A stretch of DNA of 64,000 nucleotides from Candidatus Aenigmatarchaeota archaeon (GCA_016193585.1 JACPRW010000006.1:293-64292), one strand, 5' to 3'; counted from the first letter of the stretch, positions 50 to 57,795 are shown. The notes: generated by a model not told the origin, from the sequence alone. Numbers and translations are program-made.

Positions 50-268
50 CTTTTATAGTGAACCCAGAAAAGAATCTGGATATGATTTCTGGGTTCACAT
101 ATCCCCAGAAAGCACAGCTTTCTGGGATCTCGAAGAACCTCGGTTCTTCGCAGATAGCTCACAAGGAAGTAATACATGGTGGATTCCATGAATCCACCTG
201 TACAGGAGAATCTTCGATTCTCCTCGCATCCTGTTTATTTCCTTGTAGAGCTATAAAGTGTACTTGGT
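50..268. repeat. Cluster of palindromic hairpin units plus an inverted copy of the 'AGCTCTACAAGGAA...' element also present at 55196-55340
   Basis: Hairpins gtgaacccagaaa/tttctgggttcac, ggtggattccatgaatccacc, aggagaatcttcgattctcct; TATAG/CTATA flanks; near-identical inverted copy at 55196-55340. Confidence 0.7.
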
Positions 269-404
269 GACTTAATTCACTTTGTTTAAATACTCCTTTT
301 GTTTTAATCCACTACACCCAAAGATATGCAACTGGCTTCAGACCAGCAATGCCCCTACAGGCGAGAAATCCTATTGTTTGACTTGAAGCTGGACTCTCTG
401 GACA

Positions 405-535
405 GTATCATAGTATGTTCTGTTGATTAGTGAACATTTTATGCAGAACATACCGTATAGCAGGTTCGAATGAAAAGTTCCGATAGTATTCGAACCTACT
501 ATAACATGCACCACCGTTGTAGTAAGATATGGGAA
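405..535. repeat. Palindromic MITE-like repeat (family R2: atgttctg..cagaacat + atagcaggttcgaat..attcgaacctrctat)
   Basis: About 90% identical copy at 40413-40515, partial at 55148-55195. Confidence 0.75.
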
Positions 536-688
536 TTGTGACCCTCTTGCAATAGATAGTCTGCCGCGCAGCATAGACGATCTTCTTGAAGAAATATCAG
601 AAGCTTTTGGCGAAAATATTATGGCTTCGCCGGACATCACTATGGGATACCTGACGAGGGTGGTATAGCTATTAATTGATTAGCCTGT

Positions 689-958
689 CTATTTCGTCTC
701 AAGTGCCCACGCTTTGAGCTTCTCGTAGCTCGTCGAGCCGCATATCCACTTGCCGGTCTTCTTGTTGATGAAGAACGGCACGCCGCCGCAGTAGCCCTTG
801 TCCGTTTGCTCGAGCAGCCTCGCATTCGCCGCGTTGTGCCAGACCTCGATTTTCTGTATTTTCACGCCCTCTTCCTTCTCGAGGCGCTCGATGAGCGGCT
901 GCATCTCGATGCAGTGCCTGCACTCGGTGCCGTAGAACTCGATGAGGTCGTCTGTCAT
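689..958 (-). CDS. Glutaredoxin/thioredoxin-fold protein (CxxC = CRHC)
   Basis: 89 aa, YGTECRHC active-site-like motif, GGVPFF motif typical of glutaredoxins. Confidence 0.7.
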   Translation of the reverse strand: MTDDLIEFYGTECRHCIEMQPLIERLEKEEGVKIQKIEVWHNAANARLLEQTDKGYCGGVPFFINKKTGKWICGSTSYEKLKAWALETK

Positions 959-990
959 AATGGAGATATGTAAGTGATTGTATAAATAAA

Positions 991-1692
991 TTGATTTTCA
1001 ACAGTAACCAAATGGAGCATCTCACCGCAACGGTCAGGGAAGTCATTCACGAGACGTCGACTACATTCCTCGTCAGGCTTGCGCTGCCGGAGCCGCTTGT
1101 GTTCAAGCCTGGGCAGTATGTGATGGTGCAGATTGACGACGAGCACGTGAAGCCCTACTCCATCGCATCGCCGCCTTCGGAGAAGGCGTACATCGAGTTC
1201 TGCATCCGCCGCGTCGAAGGCGGCTACGTCTCCAGCTACATGTATAATCTCAAGCCGAACCAGAGGCTGAAGCTGATGGGGCCGGTGGGCTCGTTCGTCC
1301 TCAGGGAAGTGACAACCGATATCGTTTTCCTCGCGACCGGGACCGGCATTTCCTCGCTCAAGGGTATGATAGACACGATATTCGAACGAGGTACAGAAAA
1401 GGAAATATGGCTGTTCTTCGGCAACCGCACCGAGGACGAAATCATCTACCGGGAGCACTTCGAAGAACTGGCAAAACAACATAAAAACTTTCATTTCATT
1501 CCCTGCTTAAGCAGGGCCAGCGACATCTGGAAGGGCGAGCGCGGCTACGCGCAGGACGTCATGAAAAAGCACCTCGCGAACCCCAAGGAAAAGGATGTGT
1601 ACATCTGCGGCGTTGCGGCGATGGTCGAGCAGGCTGCGGGCGTGTGCAAGGCGATGGGATTCAGGAACGTTTATTTCGAGAAGTACGTGTAA
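991..1692 (+). CDS. FAD/NAD(P)-binding oxidoreductase, ferredoxin-NADP reductase-like
   Basis: RxYS-like FAD motif (KPYSIAS), GTGI NAD(P)-binding motif, no C-terminal FeS cysteines. Confidence 0.7.
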   Translation: MIFNSNQMEHLTATVREVIHETSTTFLVRLALPEPLVFKPGQYVMVQIDDEHVKPYSIASPPSEKAYIEFCIRRVEGGYVSSYMYNLKPNQRLKLMGPVGSFVLREVTTDIVFLATGTGISSLKGMIDTIFERGTEKEIWLFFGNRTEDEIIYREHFEELAKQHKNFHFIPCLSRASDIWKGERGYAQDVMKKHLANPKEKDVYICGVAAMVEQAAGVCKAMGFRNVYFEKYV

Positions 1693-2022
1693 TTAGACGA
1701 TGTACGCTTCAAGCGCTTCTGTAACCCCCTGCTCAGTTGATTCAACCCTTACATCAGTGTCCCAATAATGAAGCACTCCAACAACCGCTTCGCCCCTGCT
1801 GATAATTGTTGCATTGACGTCGAGAGTTCCATACAAAGCTGCGTCCTCTGCTATTGGCTTCTGCGTGCAGTAGCCTTGCGCTTCCAAGGCAGCTCGAAGG
1901 TCTGCTTCCTGAACGCCTGGCTTTAGCGGGTACACGCCAATTGACGGACCTTTTCGGTACATCCCGAGAATAGCGCCCATCCGTATATGCACAAGCATGC
2001 TGTTCAAGTCTTCCATGAGCAA
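1693..2022 (-). CDS. Hypothetical protein, paralog of 2247-2603
   Basis: Shared motifs EDxRxALExxGYC[TV]Q ... SRGEAV[VI]G with neighbouring ORF. Confidence 0.5.
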   Translation of the reverse strand: MLMEDLNSMLVHIRMGAILGMYRKGPSIGVYPLKPGVQEADLRAALEAQGYCTQKPIAEDAALYGTLDVNATIISRGEAVVGVLHYWDTDVRVESTEQGVTEALEAYIV

Positions 2023-2093
2023 TCATCTTCATTCTGAAGTCAGGCGGGATGCTTAATAGCAACATCGCAAGAATTCCCTTTGCTTTATAGTGG

Positions 2094-2245
2094 ACCAACA
2101 AAAGAATACCAACATATTACTTTTGTTGTCCGCTACACGCGGAAAACAAGGTTTTCCGGTGCACCAAAAAGCTTTGCTTTTTGCGTGTACGTGAACCAAG
2201 ATATAATACCTGATTGTTTACTTGGTTCACTATAACTGGGGGTTA
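2094..2245. repeat. Composite palindromic MITE (family R6: TAGTGGACCAAC...GGTTCACTA with internal hairpins)
   Basis: Related copies at 29548-29715 and 31638-31750; TATAG / CTATA flanks. Confidence 0.75.
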
Positions 2246-2246
2246 T

Positions 2247-2603: not shown

Positions 2604-2653
2604 GGCGGTACTATTACAGAAAGCTTTTTAATTTCGTAGAGGAGTACTTAGCC

Positions 2654-3376: not shown

Positions 3377-3378
3377 CT

Positions 3379-4737: not shown

Positions 4738-4745
4738 AAAGGATA

Positions 4746-8892: not shown

Positions 8893-9013
8893 GAATGATA
8901 TGCCCCTATATACCACCGACTGAAGTCGGTGGTTTCAGTGGGGCATGTCATCCCGAATGCCTTGTGTTTTATCTGCTGCCTGAAGGCAGCAGTTTTCAAG
9001 GCATTCAAGATAA
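8893..9013. repeat. About 120-bp double-hairpin repeat (family R8), second copy inverted at 52868-52990
   Basis: About 90% identity; perfect 20-bp palindrome ccaccgactgaagtcggtgg plus gaatgccttg...gctgcctgaaggcagc...caaggcattc hairpin. Confidence 0.75.
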
Positions 9014-9201
9014 GAGAAATCCTAGAATATCTTAAGCTTGATCCTGTGCCAGCAAAAGTTTACGACCTGAAAAAATTAGAAGGCAGTAAAGATAGTTTCA
9101 GAATCCGTATTGGAAAAATGCGGATTCTTTACACAATCATATGGAAAGATAAAGTCATACTGGTTTCGAGAATAGAGAAAAGGGGGACTGTCTACGATTA
9201 A
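8929..9201 (+). CDS. relE: Archaeal RelE (RelE/ParE family toxin)
   Basis: ILEYLKLDPVPAKVYDLKKLEG...IRIGKMRILYTIIWKDKVILVSRIEKRGTVYD resembles aRelE; 5' portion overlaps repeat R8. Confidence 0.7.
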   Translation: MVSVGHVIPNALCFICCLKAAVFKAFKIREILEYLKLDPVPAKVYDLKKLEGSKDSFRIRIGKMRILYTIIWKDKVILVSRIEKRGTVYD

Positions 9202-10569: not shown

Positions 10570-10672
10570 ACGACAATAATAGTAAAGAACATTGATTTTG
10601 GAACATTTTATGATGTTCTTTCCATATAGCAGATTGCAGCTAAAAGTTCCATTATTATTACAATCTGCTATA
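10570..10672. repeat. Palindromic MITE, family R1 (aagaacattg..caatgttctt + atagcagattg..caatctgctat)
   Basis: Copies at 32068-32159, 40497-40598, 49589-49680, 53171-53380, 57700-57795. Confidence 0.8.
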
Positions 10673-10706
10673 ACATACTTGCTCTTTGCCAAATAAAGCC
10701 GCGCAT

Positions 10707-12163: not shown

Positions 12164-13120
12164 CTATGCTACACGCTGTCTTTTCTTTTTGGGTACAGGT
12201 TTATTTTCTCTTTTCTTTTTTGCCTGATCGAAATGTTCTAGTTCTTTTTCATAATAGTTACTTAAACCGATGTTGCCTTCGCTTTGCGCTTTTCGGAGCT
12301 TTAGCTTATGAATCTCTATTTGCCTTTCCAGTGACCTAATGCCCTTTTTTGCGCGCTTTTTCGTGACATAGGCTATCTTTCCCTCCAGAAAAGAAACCAG
12401 CTTCATTATGGTATCCTTCGCCAATGAATGTGCTGGAATTCTTTCCCCATCTCTCCCTGCTCTATACGCATTCATAATGACAGAAAATTCTTTCATAGTT
12501 ATTCCTTCGCTCAACATTTCTTTTTTCAGCGACTTGGTTGAATATTTTTTATTAGTTAGAAAATATTCTATTAGTAAAATCTCCTTCGAGTGCATCACGA
12601 GCGGGTAAACTATATTCGTCACGTTATCACTCGCTTTCAGTAGTTCCTTTGTTATATTTAGTGAAGATTCTATCAGTTCAACCCTTTTCTCCACTCCATA
12701 GAATTCTGCTTTTCCCATCTTTAACGTACTGAGAAATTGGTGATTTATGAAGGCTACGGCTTCATCATTAATCATTTTATAGAATATTGGATCATGCACT
12801 AAAGCATTTCTTACATCTTCTATGGTTTTTACCTGTATATCATATTTCTTCTTCAATTCTGCCGGGACTTTTATTTCAACATCACCGTCAGAAACTAGCA
12901 AAATGTCAATATCAGATTCGTCTGATAATTCTTTTCTTGCTGCCGAACCGTAGAGAATTCCGCTAATGATATGCTCCAGCGGCATTTTGCTCACAACATC
13001 CTTTACAGGGTCTTTAGGTTCCTCGAGTAATTCTATGCGTACTCTTCCGCCTATCCAGTCCTTAGGTACGTAAACCCCTCCAGAGTTTCCATACTTCTTT
13101 ACCGTTTTCATTATTGGCAT
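12164..13120 (-). CDS. Fusion protein: AbrB/MazE-like swapped-hairpin domain + minimal nucleotidyltransferase (MNT) domain + helical Lys-rich C-terminus
   Basis: N-terminal VKKYGNSGGVYVPKDWIGGRVRIEL (AbrB-like); YGSAARKELSDESDIDILLVSD (GS-x9-DxD NTase motif). Confidence 0.5.
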   Translation of the reverse strand: MPIMKTVKKYGNSGGVYVPKDWIGGRVRIELLEEPKDPVKDVVSKMPLEHIISGILYGSAARKELSDESDIDILLVSDGDVEIKVPAELKKKYDIQVKTIEDVRNALVHDPIFYKMINDEAVAFINHQFLSTLKMGKAEFYGVEKRVELIESSLNITKELLKASDNVTNIVYPLVMHSKEILLIEYFLTNKKYSTKSLKKEMLSEGITMKEFSVIMNAYRAGRDGERIPAHSLAKDTIMKLVSFLEGKIAYVTKKRAKKGIRSLERQIEIHKLKLRKAQSEGNIGLSNYYEKELEHFDQAKKKRENKPVPKKKRQRVA

Positions 13121-14648: not shown

Positions 14649-14689
14649 ATGTAGATATTCACGGGCGTACTATAAATTATTTGTGCATC

Positions 14690-14790
14690 TATAGTCGATG
14701 ACATTAGTTTTCGTACAGTCCCTAATGTCATCTCCTCATAGCAAGGACAGAACTTTTTCTGAATAGTTCTGTCACTTGCTATATTGATGC
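14690..14790. repeat. Palindromic MITE, family R3 (tagcaagtgacagaac..gttctgtccttgcta + aggagatgacat..atgtcatcgacta)
   Basis: Copies at 18822-18925, 20091-20195, 37862-37960, 53379-53425, partials 29745-29800, 53020-53060. Confidence 0.75.
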
Positions 14791-18486: not shown

Positions 18487-18834
18487 TCAGTCAGGCTCGC
18501 ACGCCGTGCCATTCCAGCATTTGCCCTCACCGCAATCACAGCCGTAAGAGAGAGCTAGTGTGCAGTGTACTATTTTTTTTGATCTGACAATCCAGCACTC
18601 GTCATGACAGCCACTTCTAAATTCTTTCCACTGTGCGCCACCTGCTGCGCAGACATCCTCGCTTTGCCGCGGGTAGTCAGGCGGGCTTTGTTGAGTTTGA
18701 GGAGATGCAGTATACATGTAAACGCCGATTGCAACAAGAATCAGTGCAAGAAGAATCAGCGTATACTTCTGCGCATGCAATCGTTCTGTTTTTCTCATCA
18801 CATGAATGTATAATTCTTTCATTATATATAGCAA
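18487..18834 (-). CDS. Small secreted/membrane-anchored cysteine-rich protein
   Basis: N-terminal hydrophobic helix, 10 Cys in C-terminal 60 aa. Confidence 0.4.
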   Translation of the reverse strand: MLYIMKELYIHVMRKTERLHAQKYTLILLALILVAIGVYMYTASPQTQQSPPDYPRQSEDVCAAGGAQWKEFRSGCHDECWIVRSKKIVHCTLALSYGCDCGEGKCWNGTACEPD

Positions 18835-18925
18835 GTGACAGAACTATTCAGACAAAGTTCTGTCCTTGCTATAAGGAGATGACATTAGAAACTGTACAAA
18901 AACTAATGTCATCGACTATAAATCT
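18822..18925. repeat. Palindromic MITE, family R3
   Basis: See 14690-14790. Confidence 0.75.
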
Positions 18926-19987: not shown

Positions 19988-19995
19988 CGAGGTAT

Positions 19996-20195
19996 GGAGA
20001 AATGCACAGCATATGTCCTCAGAGGCTGCGCATTTCTCATCTAGCGAATTGCGTTTTCACAGGTCATAAGCAACGCAATTCTCTATACTATAGCAAGTGA
20101 CAGAACTATTTATACAAAATTCTGTCCTTGCTATAAGGAGATGACATCAGTAATATGTCTGAAAACGTATGTCAGCGACTATGTAACCCTTTCAC
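19996..20195. repeat. Two adjacent MITEs: family R5 (TGGAGAAATGC..GCAATTCTCTA) followed by family R3
   Basis: R5 copy also nested at 53186-53286; both flanked by TA. Confidence 0.75.
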
Positions 20196-22904: not shown

Positions 22905-25900
22905 ATGTATTCTCAGATGCGCATGAGCAAAAGCCTGTTTGAAGTAGTTGTCATACTTGTATTCGTATTCTTCGTTCTTTTCCATTATCAGCTTTCTCCG
23001 ACGGCAAACGTTACTGCAGCAGCTTCTGCACGGAGCAAGCTCGGCCTCCACACCAGTTTCCAGAACGGTGATGCGTGGAGAACCATACAGGAAGCAAAGC
23101 CGGCTGTTGTCAAGCTTTTTGGCGAATACAGGCAAGCAGCTGAAATCAAACAGGTCTCGCCATGCACGTTTATTGTGGCAAGAACAACACAACCTCAGAA
23201 TAGCCAGCGCTATGATGGAGCCCCCGAAGACAGGGCCCAGGATTGGTTCAATACCTATAAGGATACCATACAAGCTTATCCACGTATTGATTGCTGGGAA
23301 GGGTACAACGAGCCGCCTGCCCAGAATGCCGACCAGATGCGGTGGATAGGGCTTTTTGAAAAGAAGCGCGTCGAGTTGCTTGCAACGATCAACGCCAAGG
23401 CGTGCATAGGTTCATTTCCTGTCGGCAATCCGTCGATACCTGACACATGGCGCGAATTCTATCCGGCGTTTCAGGCAGCGAAGGAGAAGGGCGGTTTCCT
23501 CGCCCTCCACGAATACGGTCCGCCGAGCAACATGCAATGCTATTTCAGCGGCGACGGGCCATGGCTCAATGGTAGATACCGGAAGGTATACAATCAGTAC
23601 CTCATCCCCGATGGCCTCGTCATACCGCTCGTCATGACTGAAGCAGGGATAGACGGCGGCTTATGCGACCAGCGTGGCTGCGAATGTAACCTATGTCGTG
23701 GTGATGCAGAGAATAAATGCGGCTGGAGAGCGTACGGAATAAGCACTGAGCGGTATATGAACGACCTCAGATGGTACGATTCTGTCATCAAGGAGGACAG
23801 CTACGTCATCGGCGCCACCATATATCAAACCGGCATTCCGGGGTGGAGGAGCTTTGAAACATCTCCTGAACTGACGCAGCCGCTCATCACCTACATCAAC
23901 CAGGTCCCTGCGCCGACGCCGCCGAATTGTCCTGTTACTAGTGCTCCGCCTCCCCCACCGCCTGTACAGAAAGGCACAGTCGCAGGCACGGTCACCGACG
24001 AGAACACGGGCTTTGGCATAGGGGAAGCAACGATACGCATCGTTAGTACTGGCATAACAGGTCGACCTATGTCCCCTGACGGCGAGTACACCATTCCCGA
24101 TGTCCCTGCCGGCACCTATACGGTCACTGCGTCTGCTTCAGGGTATCTGTCGCAGTCAAAGGACCTCCAGGAAGTGAGAAACGGGGAAACGACAACGGTT
24201 AACTTCGAGCTGATCCCCGTCCCTCCGCTTGAGGCGTGCTCGCCGAACTGTTACATTGGCGATGAAGCAGGTTATGATAAACTCTGTGCTGGCGGCACGC
24301 AGAATATCTGCGGCGGCACCAAGAACTACGGCGACGTCGTGAGCTGCAGCGAAGGCGCTGCTGAATTCGATGCTCTCTGCAGGCTCAACAGGGACGACCC
24401 GTTCATCACGTATCACACATGGTCTGAGTGCAACACTGATGCTCCGGAGAAAGGCGGGCCGAACGGCGACATTGCTGACGCAGGAACGGTGTGCGAGGCC
24501 AACGGTCGCTGCGGCGCTGGCGTGCAGGGTTCATACCTCTGCGCCCAGTTCAACGGAGCAGAGGATACGTGGGTTGCCTGCGGCACTGATGTCGCAAGCG
24601 GCGGCGATATTGTTGTTGGTTCAACAACATATAATTGCTGCAGCGGTGTCTGGCAGACAACGACATGCGGCGTAACGCCTCCTCCACCGCCTCCGCCGCC
24701 GACGCCGGTAAACAAATGCACCGCCTGCGGGAGGCCGTGCCTGCGGCTCGACAGGACTATCGGCCAGTGCACGGCTGCGCTCCAGTGCATCGGCGTGCAG
24801 TCATACGTTGACGGCAAGCGGTGCTGCGCTGACGAGGACTGTTCTCTGGGGCAACAATGCACCAACGGCGCGTGCGGCGCTGCGGTGAGTCCGGGATGCG
24901 CCAATCTCGCGGCGCGCTTCCAGCGCGACCTCAACGGCAACGGCCAGCCCGACGGCAGCGACGGGCCATGGGAGCAGAGCCTGCAGGCATCGTCCGGCGA
25001 TTCCATCAACGTCGGCCTCATCGACACGAACACCATGGGCTACCCGTCGGCAACGCTCCGCGCCAGCGGCCCTAGCTTCAGCCAAACATTCAGCAGCAAT
25101 CCTGCCAATTTCAGGCCACAGACAACAGGCACCTACACGCTCTCTGCGCAGTCAGGGTCGTGCACTGCGCAGGCGACGCTGACGGTGACAGGAACGAGCA
25201 CTGCGTGCGCTGACAGCACATCGCTCAGTGCGTGTTCGGCGACCAAGCCGAAGTACTGTGATGCTTCTGGAACACTCCAAGAAAACTACTGCTTCGGCCC
25301 TGACCGGGTCGCGGGCAACGCTGATGACTGCGGGTGCTCATCAGGGGCGTGTCAGGCAGACGGCAGGTGTGGCACAGCGCTCCCTCCGCCACCTGTTGCC
25401 GATGGCGGTCTCATCCGCGCCATACAGGACGAGTTCGGCGTCACCATGCAGGGCACCTGGAGTCCTTACCCGCAGCACCTGCGCTGGATCTATGAAAAGT
25501 TCTGGGAACTGAAGCAGACCAACCCAACGTTCATGCAGATGCTGCGCGGCAGGCCGATCTGGTGGGCAACCTGCTGCCCGAACCAACTGAGCGGCTACGT
25601 GCAGATGCCGACAACCGGCAGCTATGCGTACCGCGATGCCTTCATCACGACGCTGCTCCATGAACTGGGCCATGATATTTACTTCAATCGCCGCGATGCA
25701 GGGGCACTGACAGCGCGGTACGACGCGCACTTCGACGCGAACGGCAGGCAGGTCTTCACGAGCTACGCGAATTATTATGCAGCCGATTTCAACCGCCGGA
25801 CAGAGAATTACGCCGAGGTGATTGCGTACTGCCTCACCGGCGATGCAGTGGCATACCATTCCCGTGTGCAGCCGCAGTGGATCGACACAACAAAATGGCA

Positions 25901-29547: not shown

Positions 29548-29800
29548 GCGCCATTCTATAGTGAACCAAGTAAACAATCATGTATTACATCTTGGTTCAC
29601 GTACACCCAAAAAGCAAAGCTTTTTGGTGCACCGGAAAACTTTGTTTTCCGCGTGTAGCGGACAACAAAAGTACTATGCCGGTATTCTTTTGTTGGTCCA
29701 CTATAACTCTGGTTTGTCCCCTTAAAACCTTGAAAAACGCATGTTGTATCAAATGACAGAATTTTGTATAAATATTTCTGTCACTTGCTGCAAGGAGATG
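29548..29800. repeat. Composite MITE (family R6) plus partial family R3 unit
   Basis: TAGTGAACCAAG...TTGGTCCACTA with TA flanks; similar to 2094-2245. Confidence 0.75.
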
Positions 29801-31385: not shown

Positions 31386-31519
31386 TTTACCACCTCATAT
31401 TTATTACTTATTAATAGTAAATATTAGTATATAAAGTTATCTGTGCACTCCGCATACTTTCCCGTAGGCAACGAAATTGCATCTCCTTGCCTTGGTATTA
31501 AAAATATCGCTCTTCCCCT

Positions 31520-31800
31520 TTATAGCTGACCAACTTAATATTCAGGTATTACACAAGTTGGTCACCTATAGTGAACCAAGTTATAGATAATTGCGCAGCT
31601 TATGTCGTATTAACGCGCAATTTTCTATAGGTGAATTGCAAATAATATCAGGACATATAGTGAACCAAGTAAATAATCAGGTATTGTATCTTGGTTCACT
31701 TATAGCGGACAACAAAAGTAATATGTCGGTATTCTTTTGTTGGTCCACTATAACCAGTGCAATTCACCATATAATATCCGGATTCTTTACTTGGTTAACT
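31520..31800. repeat. Nested mosaic of palindromic MITEs (families R6, H3 aattgcgc..gcgcaatt, H4 ggtgaattgca..tgcaattcacc); a 113-bp R6 element (31638-31750) is inserted inside the H4 loop
   Basis: Uninterrupted H4 copies at 49711-49754 and 55401-55444 give the empty site ggacaTAaccag; TA duplicated at 31636-37 and 31751-52. Confidence 0.8.
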
Positions 31801-32578
31801 ATAACTGACTGATACAAAAACATGCTCCGTTAGAAAGAAATTCAAATATTTTGTTGCATCGCTGTTTCTGTTGTTGTATTTGTTTTCGTATAAAGAAACG
31901 TACAAATGCAGGTTCTTTTTGCACACGCCTTTGAACATCTCAAGAAAATGTCTCAATCCCTGAAACGCTCCTTCTATGGTGTTCGTATGAACGTCTCCAC
32001 GCACGTATTCTTTTAGCGAGTGATTGGCAGTGGCGTGTCTGTATCCTTTTTTCTTCAGCGAATTGTAATAGTAAAGAACATTGATTTTGGAACATTTTAT
32101 GATGTTCTTTCCCTATAGCAGATTGCAGCTAAAAGTTCCATTATTATTACAATCTGCTATAAGCTGTGAAATCGTCTGTGTACACAGACGATTTTTTGTC
32201 AATTCTTTTCGGCACTTTGTTAACGCTTCTCTTTCGCATGTTTGGCAAAACCCGCAATGTAATCTTTCCTTTTCTCTCCACGCTGCCAACAATCGGCGGC
32301 TTGTCTTTGTCGTATGTCCCGCGTCCGCGCAATTTCAGGCCGCGTTTTCTAGGCGGCCTTTTGAGCGTTTTGGAGCCTTTTTCGCCTGCTGCGATGTACA
32401 TCTCGTCGATTTCCACTTTTCCGGAAAGCGTTTCCAAGAAACGCTTTTCATAAACGTTGTTCATGATTTTCTTCGCTATTGTGTGGATGTTCTTGTACTC
32501 CCTGCCAAGCTCCTGGGTTATCTTGTTTATGGAAATTCCGCGTTTCAATTCCTTTGCAATGTAAACCCATTCCCGCAA
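31795..32578 (-). pseudogene. IS1595-family (ISXO2-like) transposase gene interrupted by a 92-bp MITE
   Basis: N-part ...VEIDEMYIAAGEKG...VYTDDFTAY | insertion | NSLKKKGYRHATANHSLKEYVRGDVHTNTIEGAFQ... C-part; removing 32068-32159 plus one TA restores an uninterrupted YTDDFTAYNSLKKKGY frame across the junction. Confidence 0.75.
32068..32159. mobile_element. MITE (family R1) inserted into IS1595-family transposase ORF with TA target-site duplication
   Basis: TA at 32066-67 and 32160-61; element termini ATAG...GCTA; deletion restores reading frame. Confidence 0.8.
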
Positions 32579-32791
32579 AGGAATTTTTGAGGCATCAAAA
32601 ATAGTTCCGGTCCTTTCTGTAAAAGATTTTCCGCAACTTCTATTACCCGTTAGCCTACGCGAGGATGACGCAAGGCGAACGAAACGTCCGCTGGCGTAGG
32701 AGAACCTCCGGTTCTCCTCACGTAGGCGACTTTTTCAACAAAGCCAATCGTGCAAGAATCTTTATATACTTTATATTAATATCATATTAAG

Positions 32792-33037
32792 GTGATGTAT
32801 ATGCCGCAGGCTATCGTGCGGATATCCGACAAGGCGAACAGGGTGCTGAATATTGTCAAAGCAAAATATGGATTACGCGATAAGTCCGAAGCCATAAACG
32901 TGGTGATAGAGGAATACGAAGCGGAGGTGATGGAACCGGAGCTTCGCCCTGAATACATCGAGAAGCTGGAGAAGATACGAAAAGAGAAGCCCATTAGGAT
33001 AGGAACGGCAAAAGACCTTAGAAAAAGGTACAAATGA
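32792..33037 (+). CDS. Ribbon-helix-helix (CopG-like) antitoxin
   Basis: IVRISDKANRVLNIVKAKYGLRDKSEAINVVIEEY beta-alpha-alpha pattern; 4-nt overlap with downstream toxin. Confidence 0.6.
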   Translation: MMYMPQAIVRISDKANRVLNIVKAKYGLRDKSEAINVVIEEYEAEVMEPELRPEYIEKLEKIRKEKPIRIGTAKDLRKRYK

Positions 33038-33303
33038 TGTACACGCTCTATATACGACCTTCACTGGATGAAAAATTAAGCAAACTTGCGGGAAGGAGTA
33101 GAAAGCAGTTTACGATAATCATGAAAAAGACGGAAGAAATACTACAGAGGCCGCATCATTACAAAAACTTGCATGCACCGTTGCAGCACCTGAAAAGAGT
33201 CCATATTGACAAGAGTTTTGTTCTGACATTTTCTATCGATGAAAAACGAAAGACGATAATCTTAGAAGATTACGACCACCACGACAAAATCTACAGAGGA
33301 TAG
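33034..33303 (+). CDS. RelE/ParE-family toxin
   Basis: ...LHAPLQHLKRVHIDKSFVLTFSIDEKRKTIILEDYDHHDKIY typical ParE/RelE C-terminal pattern. Confidence 0.65.
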   Translation: MMYTLYIRPSLDEKLSKLAGRSRKQFTIIMKKTEEILQRPHHYKNLHAPLQHLKRVHIDKSFVLTFSIDEKRKTIILEDYDHHDKIYRG

Positions 33304-33305
33304 CT

Positions 33306-33671
33306 ATGCAGCAAATCCTTCTCGACACCAACGTCCTGCTCCTGCCGGTGCAGCGCAAGGTTGACATTTTCGACGAGCTCAGGGATGCTGAGCTGCTCGT
33401 CTTGGCGAGCAGCATCAGGGAACTGGAGCAGCTGTCCAAGGGAAAAGGCAGGCCAGGAGCGCAGGCAAAAGCCACGCTGCAGCTGCTCCGCAGCAGGAAT
33501 ATCAGCATCCTACCGACAAAACTGCGGGGCGACAGCGCGATAATGCAGTATGCGCGCGCCAACCCGTCGGTGACCGTGGCGACCAACGACAAACAACTTA
33601 TTAAAGCATTGCAGGCGAAAGGGATTACCATCCTGCGCCTGAGGCAGAAGAAATACTTTATCGAGGAGTGA
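33306..33671 (+). CDS. PIN-domain protein (Fcf1/COG1412-like housekeeping PIN; VapC-like alternative)
   Basis: ILLDTNVLL ... VATNDKQLIKALQAKGITILRLRQKKY; starts 3 nt after ParE-like gene. Confidence 0.6.
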   Translation: MQQILLDTNVLLLPVQRKVDIFDELRDAELLVLASSIRELEQLSKGKGRPGAQAKATLQLLRSRNISILPTKLRGDSAIMQYARANPSVTVATNDKQLIKALQAKGITILRLRQKKYFIEE

Positions 33672-36814: not shown

Positions 36815-36920
36815 GTTATAGCTCTACAAGGAAACAAACAGGATATTATTTCCTTGTGAGCTATAGGTGAAACCAGTTGTAACATATCCAGATTATTTAC
36901 TGGTTTCACTATAACAACTA
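36815..36920. repeat. Palindromic hairpin repeats (agctctacaaggaaa..tttccttgtgagct; ggtgaaaccag..ctggtttcac) with TATAG/CTATA flanks
   Basis: Direct reading; related to units at 55196 and 88-268. Confidence 0.7.
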
Positions 36921-37861: not shown

Positions 37862-37960
37862 AACAGATATAGCAGGTGACAGAACTATTCAGACAACGTT
37901 CTGTCCTTGCTGCAAGGAGATGACATTAGGAACTGTATGAAAACTAATGCCATCGACTAG
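37862..37960. repeat. Palindromic MITE, family R3
   Basis: See 14690-14790. Confidence 0.75.
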
Positions 37961-40400: not shown

Positions 40401-40412
40401 ATGCTTATCTTA

Positions 40413-40598
40413 ATAGTATGTTCTGTTGATTAGTGAACATTTCATGCAGAACATACCGTATAGCAGGTTCAGGTGAAAAGTTTGGTTATTACGTGAACCT
40501 GCTATAATAGCAGATTGTAATAATAATGGAACTTTTAGCCGCAATCTGTATATGGAAAGAACATTGTAAAATGTTCCAAAATCAATGTTCTTTACTAT
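40413..40598. repeat. Two adjacent MITEs: family R2 then family R1 (inverted)
   Basis: See 405-535 and 10570-10672. Confidence 0.8.
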
Positions 40599-40750
40599 AA
40601 GATGAACATTGAAAACACGTGACTTTAGCCGTGTGATGAAACTCAATGTATGGTGGAACAACGTTCCACCTGCATAGGTGGAATTCTCAATTCCGCCATA
40701 TGTTCATCTGGATCCCATCTTCTCACAAACTACCGGCTTCAGCCGGTGAT

Positions 40751-46108: not shown

Positions 46109-46498
46109 ATGAGAGAATCCACTGTAGTGCACCTGCTTGCCGGCGTCGGGCTGGTGTCATTCGCCGTCATCGCGTATGCGACCGCGGTGTCGACGCCGCT
46201 CGTGACCGAGGCATTCGGCGGATTTCTTGTAGAAGCGACCTGTTTCGACACCGACGAGCTGCTCGACACGTCATCGAAAAGCTGCAGGGATGCGCTTGAA
46301 ATGAAAGACATCATGGAGACGGACGTGTGCGGCCGCTACGCCGCCGAGCAGCACGGTGCCTGCCATACCGTACAGGAAGCGGCCAATAAAAAGATAGCGT
46401 ACTGCTCGGACATCACTAATGTCCTGCAGGACAGGGAGCTGTACATAGATATCGGCGAGGTCGACGCGCAGTGCGCTGTCCTTCTCGGCGAAGCATAG
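46109..46498 (+). CDS. Secreted/anchored Cys-containing hypothetical protein
   Basis: N-terminal hydrophobic helix; 6 Cys. Confidence 0.35.
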   Translation: MRESTVVHLLAGVGLVSFAVIAYATAVSTPLVTEAFGGFLVEATCFDTDELLDTSSKSCRDALEMKDIMETDVCGRYAAEQHGACHTVQEAANKKIAYCSDITNVLQDRELYIDIGEVDAQCAVLLGEA

Positions 46499-46499
46499 A

Positions 46500-46600
46500 T
46501 AACTGCGTAGTTTATGTGACGTATTATTAGCAGTTATCTATATGCAAACTGCGTTGTATCATGTAACCTAAGTAACGCAGTTTACTATATGATATGCTCC
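46500..46600. repeat. Double-hairpin palindromic unit (tagataactgc..gcagttatcta; caaactgcgtt..aacgcagtttac) with TATA flanks; single copy in window
   Basis: Direct reading. Confidence 0.6.
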
Positions 46601-49229: not shown

Positions 49230-49586
49230 ATGTCATTCCATGAGGCACTCGGCCAGTCGGGCATCCTCGTCATCATCCTTTTCATCCTCTTCGTGATTGC
49301 CATCAAGAAATCGTATGAGATACTGAAGAACGTAATCCTCATCGCGGGCGCTGCCATCCTGTTCCCCCTTGTCATGAACAACATGCTCGGCTTCTCGCTC
49401 AGTACGAGCGCAGACGCGGTGGTGATGTACATAACCGCCGGCGTCGGCTTGTACCTGCTCTACCTCTTCGCCAAGTCAATCTACACGTTCCTCGGCATCG
49501 TTGAGAAGTCGGCGAAAGCTGCTGCCTCTCCGGTACGCAAAGTTATCAAGAAAAAAAGCGCGGCGCAGGACAATGATGCAGACTAA
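49230..49586 (+). CDS. Small membrane protein, hypothetical
   Basis: 3 hydrophobic helices. Confidence 0.4.
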   Translation: MSFHEALGQSGILVIILFILFVIAIKKSYEILKNVILIAGAAILFPLVMNNMLGFSLSTSADAVVMYITAGVGLYLLYLFAKSIYTFLGIVEKSAKAAASPVRKVIKKKSAAQDNDAD

Positions 49587-49588
49587 TA

Positions 49589-49790
49589 GTAAAGAACATT
49601 GATTTTGGAACATTTTACAATGTTCTTTCCCTATAGCAGATTGTGGTTAAAAGTTCCATTATTATTACAATCTGCTATAGATAATTGCGCAGCTTATGTC
49701 GTATTAACGCGCAATTTTCTATAGGTGAATCGCAAATAATATCAGAACATAACCAGTGCAATTCACCATATAATGTCAAACAAGAAATAA
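49589..49790. repeat. MITE family R1 followed by H3/H4 hairpin units
   Basis: See 10570-10672; intact H4 at 49711-49754. Confidence 0.8.
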
Positions 49791-49820
49791 AAATAATCGG
49801 TATCATTTATTTGATTCACA

Positions 49821-50444
49821 TTAGCCCGTTGCCGACAGTTCCAGCCTGATGTCGGGGACGCTGAGGGATGCCGCTGCACCGGTTATCATTATCCCATCGG
49901 CAATCTCGACAGTGCCGAGGACGTCCTGCAGCACGACAAGCTTGTCTGCGAGCCTCAGCTCAGCTCCGCGGGCGGACAGCACCGCATTGCCGGCAACAGA
50001 GAGCTCCGCTATCGTGACGTTATCCATGACGAGCGTCCCGAATGACCCGGAGCCGCTGATGGAACCTTCTGCGAACATCGCTCCGGCAACCTCAATTTTC
50101 TTGTACGTTCCCTGCAGTTCGAGCGTCTTCCCGGAGAGCGTCCCTGCGCCCCTGAAACCCTGTACCGCTATGCTGCCGTTTGTTTCAATCCTGCCGCCTT
50201 TCACGTCAGCCGTGAATGCCTGCGGCTGCAGGATGAGACGTGCATTCGTGCCGCTGAACGTTACATTGCCGTAGCTGTCGGCTGCGAGTTCAAAAGAAAC
50301 GTTGCGGGCTGGCTGTATATCAGGAAGACTGAAGGACACCTTCTCGCCGAGAGCGTTAGCGAATTCAGCAAAAGGCCCCAGCGAGAACCCTGCCGCAAGA
50401 ACAATGCCCATGATGAGAACCGTTGCCACGATTTTCCAGTCCAT
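49821..50444 (-). CDS. Secreted beta-rich repeat protein (signal-anchored), hypothetical
   Basis: N-terminal TM; Gly/Ser/Thr-rich repetitive beta-strand pattern. Confidence 0.45.
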   Translation of the reverse strand: MDWKIVATVLIMGIVLAAGFSLGPFAEFANALGEKVSFSLPDIQPARNVSFELAADSYGNVTFSGTNARLILQPQAFTADVKGGRIETNGSIAVQGFRGAGTLSGKTLELQGTYKKIEVAGAMFAEGSISGSGSFGTLVMDNVTIAELSVAGNAVLSARGAELRLADKLVVLQDVLGTVEIADGIMITGAAASLSVPDIRLELSATG

Positions 50445-50491: not shown

Positions 50492-50624
50492 GGCTCTGTA
50501 GAAACCCTAGGTAAAAGCACCCGTGGAGACCTGTTCATCCTTTTGATGAACAGGTCAGCTAGAGGTATCGTCAACAGACGATACCTCTCCCGCGGGTGCT
50601 TTTCTTGAGCATTTCTACAGAGCT
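50492..50624. mobile_element. 133-bp MITE with 13-bp terminal inverted repeats (GGCTCTGTAGAAA / TTTCTACAGAGCT) and perfect 8-bp target-site duplication AATGTAAG
   Basis: TSD at 50484-50491 and 50625-50632; internal nested perfect hairpins (aaaagcacccgtgg/ccgcgggtgctttt; gacctgttcatc/gatgaacaggtc; gaggtatcgtc/gacgatacctc). Confidence 0.7.
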
Positions 50625-52869: not shown

Positions 52870-52990
52870 TTTTTCTTTATCTTGAATGCCTTGAAAACTG
52901 CTGCCTTCAGGCAGCAGATGCAACACAAGGCATTCGGGATGCCATGCTCCACGGAAACCACCGACTTCAGTCGGTGGTATACAGGAGCAT
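52868..52990. repeat. Second copy (inverted) of about 120-bp repeat R8
   Basis: See 8893-9013. Confidence 0.75.
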
Positions 52991-53149
52991 ATCATTTGGC
53001 TTTAGAAATATAGCCGATGACATTGGTTTTCGTACAGTTTCTCATGTCATCTGTAGAGCCTATCCCAGTAGATAGAAAACCGTGTACCAGAGCCTGACAC
53101 GCCTAGAGGTTTGCGATGGAAAATCACTACGGCATTAACCAAAGATAAT

Positions 53150-53425
53150 TGACAAATGACCTTAATGGGATAGACGCTTATAGCAGATTGTAATATGGAG
53201 AAATGCGCAGCATATGTCCTTAGAGGCTGCGCATTTCTCATCTAGCGAATTGCGTTTTCATAGGTCATAAGCAACGCAATTCTCTATAATAATGGAACTT
53301 TTAACCACAATCTGCTATAGGGAAAGAACATTGTAAAATGTTCCAAAATCAATGTTCTTTACTATTAATTATAGCAAGGACAGAACTTTGTCTGAATAGT
53401 TCTGTCACTTGCTATAGTATTCAGC
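53150..53425. repeat. MITE family R1 carrying a nested 101-bp family-R5 element (53186-53286) in its hairpin loop, followed by a family-R3 unit
   Basis: Empty site gtaaTAataatgg present in other R1 copies; TA duplicated at 53184-85 and 53287-88. Confidence 0.8.
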
Positions 53426-53810
53426 CATTATGATAATGAATGCTTCCTTTACAGCCGGCAGCACGCATGGCATCCTTTATTTCTTTTTGCTGCCGCGGGC
53501 CCACAATTGTACTGACCACCAACGGCTTGTAGAGAACAGGAACGTCATCCGCTGACTGAGGTACACGTGCATCCCCTTCCATAACACCGTACACAATAGT
53601 CGCATGTCTCGGCCTGTTGAGCAATGGAATCCGTTCCAATAGTCTATCAAGAAATCCATGACCTGTTTGCCAACCTGACGGAATCATCCGGGTTTCATAC
53701 AGCAAAACCCTGCCCTGAGGCGTATCAACAGCCCTGACATTTCCACGCCTGTATAAAGACCGAAGCGTTCCGTCGGGAATTTGGTATTGTGCCATATGAT
53801 AAGCTCGCAA
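53421..53810 (-). CDS. Hypothetical protein
   Basis: 129-aa ORF, co-oriented and 6 nt from next ORF. Confidence 0.35.
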   Translation of the reverse strand: MRAYHMAQYQIPDGTLRSLYRRGNVRAVDTPQGRVLLYETRMIPSGWQTGHGFLDRLLERIPLLNRPRHATIVYGVMEGDARVPQSADDVPVLYKPLVVSTIVGPRQQKEIKDAMRAAGCKGSIHYHNG

Positions 53811-53816
53811 ACATGT

Positions 53817-54620
53817 TTATTCGGCTACATGCGTCCTTTGCGGCAGCGCACCAAGTTGCATGAGCTGCTTACCCACATGAAGCGTGTTTCCCAATCCAGA
53901 ATCCGCATACGAGCGCTCGGCTATCTCTGCGTACCGTTCTACTCTTTTTCCTTCTCTGCCTGCCCTGAGAACAGCATCGCCAAAACCGACCAAGCCCAAC
54001 CCTATGTCTGGCGCGAGATAGAATGACTGCCGTGGAGCGACCGTAGTCCCTTCGCATGCTACTACCTCTTCCTCGATTCTCCTTTCGAGCGCGTCGAGGT
54101 ACGCCTCCAGGGCACTTGCTCCATCATGTTCAAGCTGTTTGCCTCTTTGGAGTAAACCAAACATGCGGGTCGGCGTGAGAACTTTGCGGGTAGCCCTGAG
54201 CGGCTCTGGTGAAATGACAAATGTTTCATTGTACCCTGAGAGAAATAGCTCCTCTGGATTATTGTTGTACCGTCCGCCGCTCCGTGAAGGATTGAACACC
54301 AAGGTTGCCGCATTGGAAAAACCAGAGGCATACGGGTCTTCCTCCCCGCCTGCCCGATCGTACGTATTGTGGGGATAGAATAGTGTTGCTGCTCTTTCCA
54401 AAGGAACGCGCTGCCAGTGATGCAGTATGGCGTATGCCAAGGCGTTTCCGTACGCAGGTTTCCGTGCATCTTCAGGCCGTGTCTCGAGTGCTGCCCGCAC
54501 CCATACCAACCTTTTCCGGTAATCAAGGAGATGACTTCTATACGCTTTCGGCATCCCTGCTTCCAGTTCAGCGACCGTCGCATTGAATAAAGCAGTGAGA
54601 TTTTGCTTTCCGGCTTTCAT
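53817..54620 (-). CDS. Hypothetical protein
   Basis: 267-aa ORF. Confidence 0.4.
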   Translation of the reverse strand: MKAGKQNLTALFNATVAELEAGMPKAYRSHLLDYRKRLVWVRAALETRPEDARKPAYGNALAYAILHHWQRVPLERAATLFYPHNTYDRAGGEEDPYASGFSNAATLVFNPSRSGGRYNNNPEELFLSGYNETFVISPEPLRATRKVLTPTRMFGLLQRGKQLEHDGASALEAYLDALERRIEEEVVACEGTTVAPRQSFYLAPDIGLGLVGFGDAVLRAGREGKRVERYAEIAERSYADSGLGNTLHVGKQLMQLGALPQRTHVAE

Positions 54621-54651
54621 AGAATCATTTTACTACCGAAAAGTATTAAAA

Positions 54652-55071: not shown

Positions 55072-55147
55072 GATACTATTTGGTCGGCGCGGTTAATAAG
55101 CATGACTGTTGTAAACGACCAAATCGATAGCGTGCTACCATCATCTG

Positions 55148-55450
55148 CACAAGTCTTATAGCAGGTTCGAATGAAAAGTTCCAGTAGTATTCGAACCTGC
55201 TATAGCTCTACAAGGAAATAAACACGATACGAGGAGAATCGAAGATTCTCCTGTACAGGTGGATTCATGGAATCCACCTTGTATTACTTCCTTGTTTGCT
55301 ATACATGGTGAAACAACGTTTCACCTGTACAGGTAAAGCTTTGCTTTGCCATGTAGGTGACGCAAATGTATAATATCGGTATTATTTATTTGCTTCACTA
55401 TAACGCGCAATTTTCTATAGGTGAATTGCAAATAATATCAGGACATAACC
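55148..55450. repeat. Tandem array of MITEs: R2 unit, AGCTCTACAAGGAA-type element (copy of 157-265), H4 unit
   Basis: Direct comparison with copies elsewhere in window. Confidence 0.8.
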
Positions 55451-55528
55451 AGTGCAATTCACCATATAAAGCAAACACAGAAACAGCCGAACGGCAAATC
55501 TCAAAAAGTTGAAGAACATACATGGCTC

Positions 55529-56200
55529 GTGGTACTTGCTTTTGGAGAACACCTGTACAGGGAACTCGAAGTCCTGCTCCGCAGGACACTTCCTGATTTT
55601 GATGAGCCGTCGGTGCGGTATCTCGCCTGCCGTCTTGCAACAGCAGAAAATGTGCCATTCGAAGTAATCAGGCTGTACCGGACCGGCCTGGAGGCGGAAA
55701 TGGTGCCAGAAACACCGAGGCAGGAAGCATACAAAAGAAAACTTGGGCTTTCCCAAAGGATTGGCGATGGTTGCCTCGTTCATTGCATCTTCTACGATGA
55801 AGATAGGGACCCTGAGAGAACAATGAGCATGCAGAGAGGCCGCCCCATAAGGCCAGCACCTGCATCGTATGAAGTGCCTTCTGTAGACAGGAGAAGCTCT
55901 GCTCATGAGAAGCCTCCTGGTGTGCCATCGGCATCAAAAACACCGATTCAGCCGGGAATAATACTGATGAACGTGGGTAAATCTGGCTATCATATGGCAG
56001 AGCTCTACGCAGCATTGCTGGACCTCCCAGAACGTTCCGTATACGCGCGCCTCGCAGACAATTTCCCTGAGATAATCGCACGAGTCGGCCCGCACCTGCA
56101 AAGAGAGTATCTCGGAGTCACTGAACCACCGCAACGTGTAGTGCTGCATAAACCAGGGGGCGGGAAGACCCTTTTGAGGGTGAGGATGTCGGCGAATTAA
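55529..56200 (+). CDS. Hypothetical protein
   Basis: 223-aa ORF. Confidence 0.4.
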   Translation: MVLAFGEHLYRELEVLLRRTLPDFDEPSVRYLACRLATAENVPFEVIRLYRTGLEAEMVPETPRQEAYKRKLGLSQRIGDGCLVHCIFYDEDRDPERTMSMQRGRPIRPAPASYEVPSVDRRSSAHEKPPGVPSASKTPIQPGIILMNVGKSGYHMAELYAALLDLPERSVYARLADNFPEIIARVGPHLQREYLGVTEPPQRVVLHKPGGGKTLLRVRMSAN

Positions 56201-56207
56201 TTGCGTA

Positions 56208-57656
56208 TTATCCCTTCACATTCCCAATAGGCGCAAGCTTCACGACCTTCTTCGAGATGCCTGCCTGGTGTACGGCGTTGATGACCTCATCGATGTCCTT
56301 GTACGCTCCGCCTGCCTCCTCGGCGACGCCCGACATGCTCACGCTCTTCACATAGATGCCGCGCTTCGCCATGTCCTGAATGAGCCGGTCGCCGCGGTAG
56401 AGCTGCTTTGCCCGTGCCCTGCTCATGGTGCGGCCGCTGCCATGACAGGTCGAGCCGAACGTTTCCTCCATCGCCTTGCTCGTGCCAGCAAGTAGGTACG
56501 ACCCTGTTTCCATCGAGCCGCCGATGATAATCGGCTGCCCGACGCTGCGGTATTTTTCAGGCACCTCTTCCCTGCCAGGGCCGAAAGCCCTGGTAGAGCC
56601 TTTGCGGTGGACAAGCACTTCCTTCGTCTGACCGTCGAGCTTGTGCTTCTCCAGCTTCGCGGTGTTGTGCGCCACGTCATAGACCTGGTGCATGCCCATG
56701 TCCTCGGCGCTTCTGCCAAAAACTTTCGAAAACACTTCACGAATGCGATGAAGTATTACCTGACGGTTTGCAAACGACATATTGATGCCGCACTGCATGG
56801 CGGCGAAGTAATCCTGCCCTTCCCTGCTCCTGAACGGCGCGCATGCGAGCTCGCGGTCCAGCACCTTGATGCCATACTTCGGCATGACGTTGAGGAACGT
56901 CTGCAGGTAGTCGGTGCCGATCTGATGGCCAAAGCCGCGGCTGCCGCAGTGAAACATTATTACAATCTGTTCAGTCTCGGTGATGCCGAACGCCTTCGCT
57001 GTCTCGGCATCATTGATGTCCTTGGCGTACTGTATCTCAAGGTAATGGTTTCCTGAGCCAAGCGTGCCGATCTGTTCCATGCCGCGCTTGATGGCACGGT
57101 CGCTCACCTTTGATGCGTCGGCGCCCTTCATGACGCCGTCCTCCTCGGTCATCTTCAGGTCTTCTTCCCAGCCGTAGCCCTGCTCGATGCACCACCGCGC
57201 ACCGGTTTCGGTAATTTCTCGGAACTGCTGCCTGTTCAGCTTGACAAAGCCTGTTGAACCAACGCCGGCAGGGACGCGCTGGAAGAGGTTATCGACTAAT
57301 TCTTTGATTCTGGGGCGGACATCTTTCAGTGTGAGGTTTGTCGTGAGAAGCCTCATGCCGCAATTGATGTCGAATCCAATCCCGCCAGGAGAAATGATAC
57401 CTTTCTCTACATCAAACGCCGCGACGCCGCCTATGGGAAATCCGTAGCCCCAGTGACCGTCAGGCATGCAATACGCATACTTGAGAATGCCCGGCAGGCA
57501 CGCAACGTTAGTGACCTGATTGTACACGCCGTCGTCCATTTCCTTGACGAGCTTCTCGGTCGCGTATATGCGCGCAGGCACGTGCATGCCCTGCTTGAAG
57601 GTTTTTGGTATTTCCCATACCGTGTCGGATACTTTTTTCAGCTCTGGTGGAGCCAT
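56208..57656 (-). CDS. rtcB: RNA-splicing ligase RtcB
   Basis: 482 aa, conserved metal-binding His/Cys blocks (HCGSRGFGHQ, catalytic His region). Confidence 0.85.
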   Translation of the reverse strand: MAPPELKKVSDTVWEIPKTFKQGMHVPARIYATEKLVKEMDDGVYNQVTNVACLPGILKYAYCMPDGHWGYGFPIGGVAAFDVEKGIISPGGIGFDINCGMRLLTTNLTLKDVRPRIKELVDNLFQRVPAGVGSTGFVKLNRQQFREITETGARWCIEQGYGWEEDLKMTEEDGVMKGADASKVSDRAIKRGMEQIGTLGSGNHYLEIQYAKDINDAETAKAFGITETEQIVIMFHCGSRGFGHQIGTDYLQTFLNVMPKYGIKVLDRELACAPFRSREGQDYFAAMQCGINMSFANRQVILHRIREVFSKVFGRSAEDMGMHQVYDVAHNTAKLEKHKLDGQTKEVLVHRKGSTRAFGPGREEVPEKYRSVGQPIIIGGSMETGSYLLAGTSKAMEETFGSTCHGSGRTMSRARAKQLYRGDRLIQDMAKRGIYVKSVSMSGVAEEAGGAYKDIDEVINAVHQAGISKKVVKLAPIGNVKG

Positions 57657-57699
57657 CCCTTGTCATTCACCTCATTTTCTCTGAGTATTACTAGGAGCC

Positions 57700-57795
57700 T
57701 TCTTATAGCAGATTGTAATAATAATGGAACTTTTTACCACAATCTGCTATAGGGAAAGAACATTGTAAAATGTTCCAAAATCAATGTTCTTTACT
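57700..57795. repeat. Palindromic MITE, family R1
   Basis: See 10570-10672. Confidence 0.8.

Follow-up and report, generated by a model that had tools for sequence, protein, structure and literature searches.

The DNA analysed here, referred to throughout as the window, is a 64-kb stretch (JACPRW010000006.1:293-64292) from the metagenome-assembled genome (MAG) of a Candidatus Aenigmatarchaeota archaeon, a member of the DPANN archaea, and it carries a dense population of short palindromic hairpin elements. The window has a GC content of ~52.5%, contains no tRNA gene and encodes the archaeal housekeeping proteins RtcB, ADP-forming acetyl-CoA synthetase, Kae1, DinB and an archaeal-type GluRS. 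A haloarchaeal host, hinted at by a DUF7847 neighbour, is rejected, because the proteins are not acidic in composition and GluRS assigns the window to Aenigmatarchaeota. This GluRS is 100% identical to a protein of a 'Candidatus Aenigmarchaeota archaeon' MAG; its next relatives are ~70% identical and likewise belong to Aenigmatarchaeota, which together with the housekeeping proteins bears out the archaeal origin proposed in an initial sequence-only reading of the window. The hairpin elements occupy 23 sites, from a first unit at 54-101 to an array that ends at 57802, consistent with the interval of 50-57795 over which that reading had described them. They comprise ~45 units of 38-50 nt (class 1) and ~16 shorter units of 20-28 nt (class 2). 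With a total length of ~3.0 kb they make up 4.7% of the window and about a fifth of its intergenic DNA.

The hairpin-repeat population is real and lies far above chance. The pattern TATAG-N20-50-CTATA occurs 19 times against an expectation of 0.38, a count reached by none of 100 shuffles, and a hairpin scan of the window (score ≥9, loop of 10-30) returns 54 hairpins as compared with 4-9 in block shuffles. Hairpin density is five-fold higher in intergenic DNA (5.55 per kb) than in genes (1.07 per kb), and the arrays have a GC content of 35% against 52.5% for the window. A repeat search resolves 11 multi-copy families present in both orientations, some copies being 96-99% identical in unrelated contexts, and at least 13 stem families can be counted. 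Folding of representative units and doublets as single-stranded DNA yields z-scores of -4 to -9. An Rfam 15 scan of the window gives no match at the gathering score. The elements are short, non-coding, palindromic and multi-copy, as anticipated, with families recurring in both orientations; the intergenic location given to them by the sequence-only reading holds for most sites, the exceptions being two insertion sites inside a remnant of an IS1595-family insertion sequence (IS).

Class-1 units share a common layout, (T)ATAG followed by a 10-16-bp arm, an asymmetric loop of 14-24 nt, the complementary arm and CTAT(A), and have TAG..CTA ends. The palindromes extend to the very ends of the elements and their inverted repeats are therefore terminal. 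Exact TATAG and CTATA bounds, previously described as almost universal, are found in about half of the units, the remainder showing ATAG/CTAT, TAG/CTA or degraded ends. Class-2 units, which the sequence-only reading had not separated, have a loop of only 3-4 nt and CAKG..CMTG ends flanked by TA (TA-CAKG..CMTG-TA); where two of them are adjacent, the junction frequently reads TGTACA. Two groups of loop motifs are observed, ..GGAAC(A)TTTT.. in the first and ..AATAATCNGGTATTA.. or ..CTGGATAT.. in the second. An alignment of 13 B units from 5 genomes, B being one hairpin of the doublet D1 described below, has 94% of its cells paired, with changes on both sides in 5 of 16 stem pairs. Mismatch counts between strands, compared as a possible sign of a functional single strand, are 16 for G-T and 8 for A-C.

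Units are frequently arranged as doublets, the commonest of which, D1 (A+B, 91 nt), consists of two hairpins that are diverged copies of one unit type, inverted relative to each other. The A and B loops are mutually complementary, which may simply reflect that the two hairpins are inverted copies of the same unit type. Such complementary loops, GGAACATTTT and AAAAGTTCC, are seen at 10584-10672 and 408-504 in the window; a related locus (L076) has doublet copies at 1427-1521 and 2349-2445, the second of which is complementary through other bases (TGAACTTT / AAAGTTCA). Units are also joined directly end to end, and this joining is marked by CTATAG, which occurs 25 times in the window against 7.0 expected (3.6-fold; for example at 31566, 31625, 36861, 49675, 49719, 55200 and 57747). 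One CTAG junction is present besides these CTA-TAG junctions.

Six filled/empty reconstructions show that the elements insert at TA and duplicate it, often in the AT-rich loops of other units. The target duplication is exactly TA in two reconstructions and does not exceed ATA or TAA in a further three or four, in agreement with the TA duplication proposed from sequence alone. In the array at 53178-53417 (minus strand), the loop of a B unit (53178-53319) is split by an F9+F10 doublet (53197-53288) with duplication of the loop TA/ATA; an A unit and an F4 unit follow. The 279-nt nested array at 31523-31801 contains F13 followed by an F5-like unit split by F7+F8, in which F8 is itself split by F5+F6; here the loop TA, at most ATA, is duplicated. 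An intact F11 unit (36817-36865) serves as the empty-site reference for class 2, since the filled copies at 155-253 and 55201-55304 differ from it by a 54-nt class-2 pair with an exact duplication of TA. The filled F11 composite is present at two loci, indicating that it was copied after the insertion. Nested composites have been re-copied as wholes, and the mosaics reported at 31520-31800, 53150-53425 and 55148-55450 are indeed nested or tandem arrays.

The IS1595-family remnant, which is 5'-truncated, lies on the minus strand at 31508-~32655 with a terminal inverted repeat, CGCTCTTCCCC, at 31508-31518, and it has been struck twice by hairpin elements. Its transposase open reading frame (ORF; 32147-32578, minus strand) matches positions 1-91 of 153 of the Pfam domain DDE_Tnp_IS1595 with 42.1 bits, and the N-terminal fragment is annotated by NCBI as a 143-aa 'IS1595 family transposase'. 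The ORF is split by an A+B doublet in plus orientation (32066-32162; element 32069-32159) that is flanked on both sides by TAA. Excision of 32069-32162, the D1 doublet plus one TAA, rejoins the ORF in frame (..DDFTAYNSLKKKGY.., ..VYTDDFTAYNSLKKKGYRHATANHS..), whereupon the domain match becomes contiguous over positions 1-147 of 153 and rises from 42.1 to 82.5 bits. Removal of a short hairpin at 32698-32718 gives no clean restoration of the N-terminus. The second insertion is the 279-nt array, which occupies 31521-31803 including its flanks and sits at the transposase stop codon. Intact IS1595 copies read ..CAGTCAGT TAA AGGAGAAGAGCG and represent the empty site (CAGT-TA-AAGG in L113 and L114), whereas the filled site of the window reads ..CAGTCAGT TA (TAG..279 nt..CTA) TA AAGGGGAAGAGCG, the duplicated stretch being exactly two bases long, TA, at 31521-22 and 31802-03. 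The entire nested array behaves as one insertion. Mobility is shown by the nested loops, the split IS1595 gene, the array at the 3' end of the IS and the non-orthologous occurrence of the elements in other MAGs, along with their absence from further relatives, described below.

The remaining sites combine the same modules. D1 doublets are found on the plus strand at 408-504 (A unit GTATGTTCTG.., B unit TATAGCAGGTTCGAAT..) and at 10577-10673, the latter with TAA..TAA flanks between the aspartate ammonia-lyase and glutamate dehydrogenase genes, and on the minus strand, as a B+A doublet with TTA..TTA flanks, at 57704-57802 (89% identical to a copy in DATDXH01, L089). The region 40411-40670 holds an A+B doublet (40411-40507) and an inverted B+A doublet (40508-40603) with one TAA in common, as well as a short hairpin (40652-40670). 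In the plus-strand array at 49584-49823, an A+B doublet, F7, F8 and a partial unit are connected by CTA-TAG junctions, a single TA pair enclosing the first four units. Doublets of F3 and F4 occur at 14689-14784 (F3+F4, minus strand; GATGACATTAG.. and GCAAGGACAGAAC.. hairpins), 18826-18918 (F4+F3, plus strand, family D3) and 37867-37959 (F4+F3, plus strand; 91% identical to 18826-18918), and within 19993-20180 (plus strand), where an F9+F10 doublet (19993-20090) abuts an F4+F3 doublet (20088-20180). A composite of F5, two class-2 hairpins and F6 (29556-29707) is accompanied by a degenerate F4/F3 copy (29744-29800) at 29556-29800 on the plus strand, and its 150-nt reverse-complement copy, F6, two class-2 hairpins and F5, lies at 2085-2235 on the minus strand. 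The intact F11 unit abuts F12 (36862-36913) at 36817-36913 (plus strand). The array at 53-262 is made up of the class-1 unit at 54-101 (GTGAACCCAG stem), class-2 hairpins at 104-126 and 131-150, and the reverse-complement F11 copy filled by a nested class-2 pair (155-253). That at 55157-55468 consists of a B unit, F11 split by a class-2 pair (55228-55282), two more class-2 hairpins, a GTGACGCAAATG unit, half an F7 unit and F8. The short hairpin ACCACCGACT..AGTCGGTGGT at 8912-8933 has a paralogue at 52957-52978, which together with a solo F3 unit (53009-53052) forms the site at 52957-53052. Finally, two units (ATAGATAACTGCG.. and AAACTGCGTT..) lie at 46493-46590, the first of which contains the end of a Logan contig (L001).

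Copies are not restricted to the window, and the same families are present in at least four other archaeal MAGs. The matches listed from a scan of genome contigs with a degenerate seed of 17 specified bases are mostly chance bacterial ones, together with nine loci from JACRMW01, JBAZQV01, CAYJRV01 and DATDXH01 (GC 35-51%) that contain B and A units as well as F3-, F6-, F7-, F10- and F11-like units. With a covariance model built on the B unit (R1), scores above 40 bits are confined to the window and these four MAGs, and none of the ~88 bacterial loci with the 17-nt seed exceeds 24 bits. Copies of the 408-504 doublet in other Aenigmatarchaeota MAGs are 85-88% identical to it (85/100 in JBAZQV01, 84/100 in CAYJRV01), a similarity on a par with that to its paralogue at 40411 (84/97). 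A comparison with relatives was suggested by the sequence-only reading: in a partly syntenic locus of CAYJRV01 (L042) a hairpin cluster lies at a non-orthologous place, and in two other Aenigmatarchaeota (L102, L103) the 20-kb syntenic region around GluRS contains no hairpin elements. A scan of metagenome contigs with a 20-base pattern gave two chance matches without hairpins, and scans of viral contigs gave only single phage palindromes. Those in L115, L118 (TATAGCAGGTTATCAG..) and L119/L122/L123/L125 (AATAGTGAACC..GGTTCACTATT) share their outer bases with two of the families; they have neither the loop motifs nor further copies and are judged unrelated.

Logan assemblies of runs SRR121133xx-SRR121134xx also contain DNA of the window, in every case on short contigs. 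In 8-10 samples, Logan contigs terminate inside or beside hairpin elements, as expected of dispersed repeats, and the hairpin repeats are a likely main cause of the fragmented assembly of this organism. Eight of the contigs (L001, L104-L110) are independent assemblies of the same strain that are 100% identical to the window and stop at hairpin arrays.

Taken together, these observations are best accounted for, in our assessment with somewhat better than even confidence, by families of non-autonomous mobile elements resembling palindromic MITEs (miniature transposable elements with inverted repeats), which duplicate TA and are moved in trans. Units insert at TA, with duplication of TA, into spacers, into the loops of other units and, at least twice, into IS1595, and units, inverted doublets and nested composites are then copied whole through their outermost ends, which gives rise to the mosaics. 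Movement would be by cut-and-paste, with the TA-specific transposase encoded at another place in the genome or derived from an element that is foreign or has been lost. The symmetry of the terminal repeats and the duplicated TA make an IS630/Tc1-mariner-like DDE enzyme the leading candidate, with an IS5/PIF-like enzyme as the second. The sequence-only assignment to IS630/Tc1-mariner-type MITEs stands as regards MITE and TA duplication, its attribution to that enzyme family being tentative and resting only on the duplication and the terminal inverted repeats. CTA-TAG junctions and the one CTAG junction could, more speculatively, have arisen if excised units were joined end to end and then integrated by way of the outer ends, and the possession of one element set by several Aenigmatarchaeota lineages may be due to old residence or to horizontal spread.

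Several observations weigh against such TA-specific cut-and-paste. No transposase with matching ends was found in the window, nor in related loci amounting to ~60 kb: the scanned ORFs of the window include no Pfam match to an IS630-family transposase (DDE_3), Y1_Tnp or TnpB, the 10 mid-size ORFs scanned in related loci include no IS630-like, Y1 or TnpB gene, and no conserved uncharacterised protein recurs beside the hairpin clusters of those loci. For double-stranded DNA that has to be synapsed and moved by cut-and-paste, a length of 20-50 bp is very short. The stem families, at least 13 in number, have in common only the five terminal bases of the TATAG end, GTGAAC being additionally common to many units of one group. 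Conservation is higher in loops than in stems, contrary to what MITEs usually show, and AACTTTT is invariant in the loops of the 13 aligned B units. Had units been inserted serially at TA, CTATATAG would be expected; it does not occur in the window, whereas CTA-TAG junctions do. The TAA..TAA flanks of the D1 doublet have a fixed orientation in seven of eight copies. Finally, no empty-site strain variants were recovered, as all Logan contigs end at repeats.

These features keep alive a hairpin-recognising single-strand mechanism of the HUH type, which is the main rival even though we regard it as unlikely. The elements would then be moved by an HUH/Y1 enzyme, as an archaeal counterpart of REP/REPIN-RAYT systems or of 'terminal-only' IS200/IS605 derivatives (PATEs), the enzyme reading the hairpin in its folded form together with the loop, and the TA on either side being a cleavage or target motif that the element's end also contains rather than a true duplication. 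The short units, conserved loops, diversity of stems, CTA-TAG junctions and TAA-flanked D1 doublets are what sustains this reading: units are single hairpins of REP-like size with covarying stems, doublets join two related units in inverted orientation as REPINs do, arrays are BIME-like, and the TAA flank of D1 is fixed in orientation. Moreover, IS200/IS605 is the most widespread archaeal IS family (PMC13343696), and Haloquadratum has a 52-bp terminal-only PATE (PMC3119063). Against it, the inverted repeats are terminal rather than subterminal, exact TA is found on both sides where the host sequence is known, the elements are present at TA in both orientations, and neither a Y1 nor a TnpB gene is found among the scanned ORFs. 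A reading in which recognition of structure is central, namely a phylum-level family defined by a conserved loop and a TATAG foot on a covarying stem, is distinctly unlikely; the enzyme would be either new to TA duplication in archaea or a known one acting on hairpin or cruciform DNA, and the doublets, whose loops are able to pair with each other, might have been co-opted in reduced DPANN genomes as modules for regulation or structure.

Two further explanations compete with the favoured trans-mobilised, TA-duplicating elements. The IS1595-family element is the sole transposase gene of the window and adjoins its largest array, which could make it the cognate transposase source. The ends of IS1595 elements, defined from homologue contigs, are CGCTCTTC(T/C).. 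and ..GAAGAGCG and bear no similarity to the TAG.. ends of the hairpins, and a related copy (L112) is flanked by an 8-bp duplication, AATCCTTT; the remnant is therefore a victim of the hairpin elements and not their driver. It is itself disrupted twice by them. Intact relatives, whose transposases of 297-303 aa are 80-90% identical at the amino acid level, are present on Logan/JGI contigs of roughly 1-1.3 kb and in two archaeal MAGs (L111-L114), and genomes with intact copies (L111, L112) contain no hairpin units. This source is most improbable. The statement of the sequence-only reading that the window encodes no cognate transposase is incomplete, as it overlooked the IS1595 remnant, which is a transposase gene but not a cognate one. 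A role as host-selected cis elements (terminators, RNA-stability hairpins, or RNA modules that bind proteins or form kissing loops), conserved for their function and mobile only secondarily or not at all, is very unlikely. It would fit the very stable hairpins, the mutually complementary A and B loops and loop motifs that are invariant across genomes of 37-52% GC. Against it stand the insertions within an IS gene and within other elements, the non-orthologous positions in the syntenic L042 and the absence from other relatives, the occurrence of elements in either orientation to flanking genes, in convergent, divergent and tandem spacers alike, and the lack of an Rfam match.

Comparison with known systems shows resemblances to several of them. 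The Correia/NEMIS elements of Neisseria and the RUP elements of Streptococcus pneumoniae, the latter linked to IS630-Spn1, are likewise non-coding, AT-rich and mostly intergenic, with terminal inverted repeats, TA ends, a duplicated TA target and stable hairpins. Correia ends begin with TATAG. Both differ in being ~100-155 bp long with one or few families per genome, as compared with 20-50 bp and at least 13 stem families here, and neither has the conserved loops, CTA-TAG-joined nested mosaics or DPANN host of the window elements, for which no IS with matching ends was found. The ~26-bp conserved inverted repeat of the 100-155-bp Correia elements of Neisseria is likewise missing from the window elements, which have only the TATAG start and the TA duplication in common with them. 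The properties of TA-ended bacterial MITEs, including RUP, match those listed here, and RUP also lands in IS genes and inactivates their transposases (PMC2229807). REP, BIME and REPIN sequences are alike in their 20-40-nt palindromic units, inverted doublets, mosaic arrays and many intergenic copies, and the A+B doublets show the inverted doublet as a common unit, as in REPINs. They differ in having a one-sided GTAG beside the palindrome, no target duplication and a link to RAYT, whereas the window elements end symmetrically (TATAG..CTATA or TAG..CTA) and duplicate TA, and no repeat-flanked RAYT (Y1_Tnp) gene is found among the window ORFs. To our knowledge, RAYT systems have been described in bacteria only.

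Among archaea, the MITEs, PATEs and SMRs of Haloquadratum walsbyi offer a parallel: these transposase-free repeats outnumber transposons, land preferentially in mobile elements, include a 52-bp single-palindrome derivative and, in the case of SMRs, likewise have no known mobilising enzyme (PMC3119063). They have no sequence relation to the window hairpins. PATEs and SMRs differ further in lacking a target duplication, PATEs being without terminal inverted repeats and tied to IS605, and SMRs being 80-110 bp long; the window elements have terminal palindromes and a duplicated TA, and no TnpA or TnpB gene is found in the window. Eukaryotic MITEs derived from Tc1/mariner (Stowaway-like) share the TA duplication and terminal inverted repeats, but are of the order of 100-300 bp, far longer than the units described here, and have known autonomous partners. 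The class-2 ends (TA-CAGG..) may resemble the CAGG/CAGT ends of mariner-type elements. TA-duplicating MITEs are known in bacteria and eukaryotes, and MITEs are known in Sulfolobus. They are also known in the archaeon Haloquadratum (PMC3119063). Full-text literature searches returned no account of repeats of this kind from Aenigmatarchaeota or from other members of the DPANN archaea.

Other features of the window were noted beside these elements. A 1974-aa protein encoded on the plus strand at 22905-28829 contains CarboxypepD_reg, Big_2, NosD and beta-helix repeats and is, from its domain content, probably a large surface protein. Genes of toxin-antitoxin type lie at 32792-33671, 8929-9201, 59896-60234 and 12164-13120; an RHH-like ORF, a RelE-like ORF and a PIN_9 protein adjoin the IS1595 remnant, and further genes of this type encode a second RelE-like ORF, a PemK/MazF toxin and a low-GC (38%) protein with a nucleotidyltransferase domain. 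ORFs of 130-280 aa without a Pfam match are found beside large arrays at 53421-54620, 55529-56200, 58974-59804 and 49821-50444. GC-richer, perfect short palindromes with the core ATCGTC..GACGAT occur at 50528-50588 and 32169-32194, one pair 3' of the gene at 49821-50444 and one within the IS1595 coding sequence.

The hairpin elements are a lineage-specific swarm of minimal, modular, TA-duplicating hairpins, an unusually tiny form of miniature transposons already known. The genomes of DPANN archaea are very small and usually thought to be repeat-poor. Against this expectation, a transposase-free bloom takes up about a fifth of the intergenic DNA of the window, breaks assemblies and has knocked out an IS, and these repeats likely account for the fragmentation of Aenigmatarchaeota MAGs. 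In practical terms, the elements could provide markers with which to type strains and to trace horizontal exchange from one lineage to another. The units lie near the lower size limit of anything known to transpose, and their mobilising enzyme, if found, would reveal how such minimal substrates are recognised.

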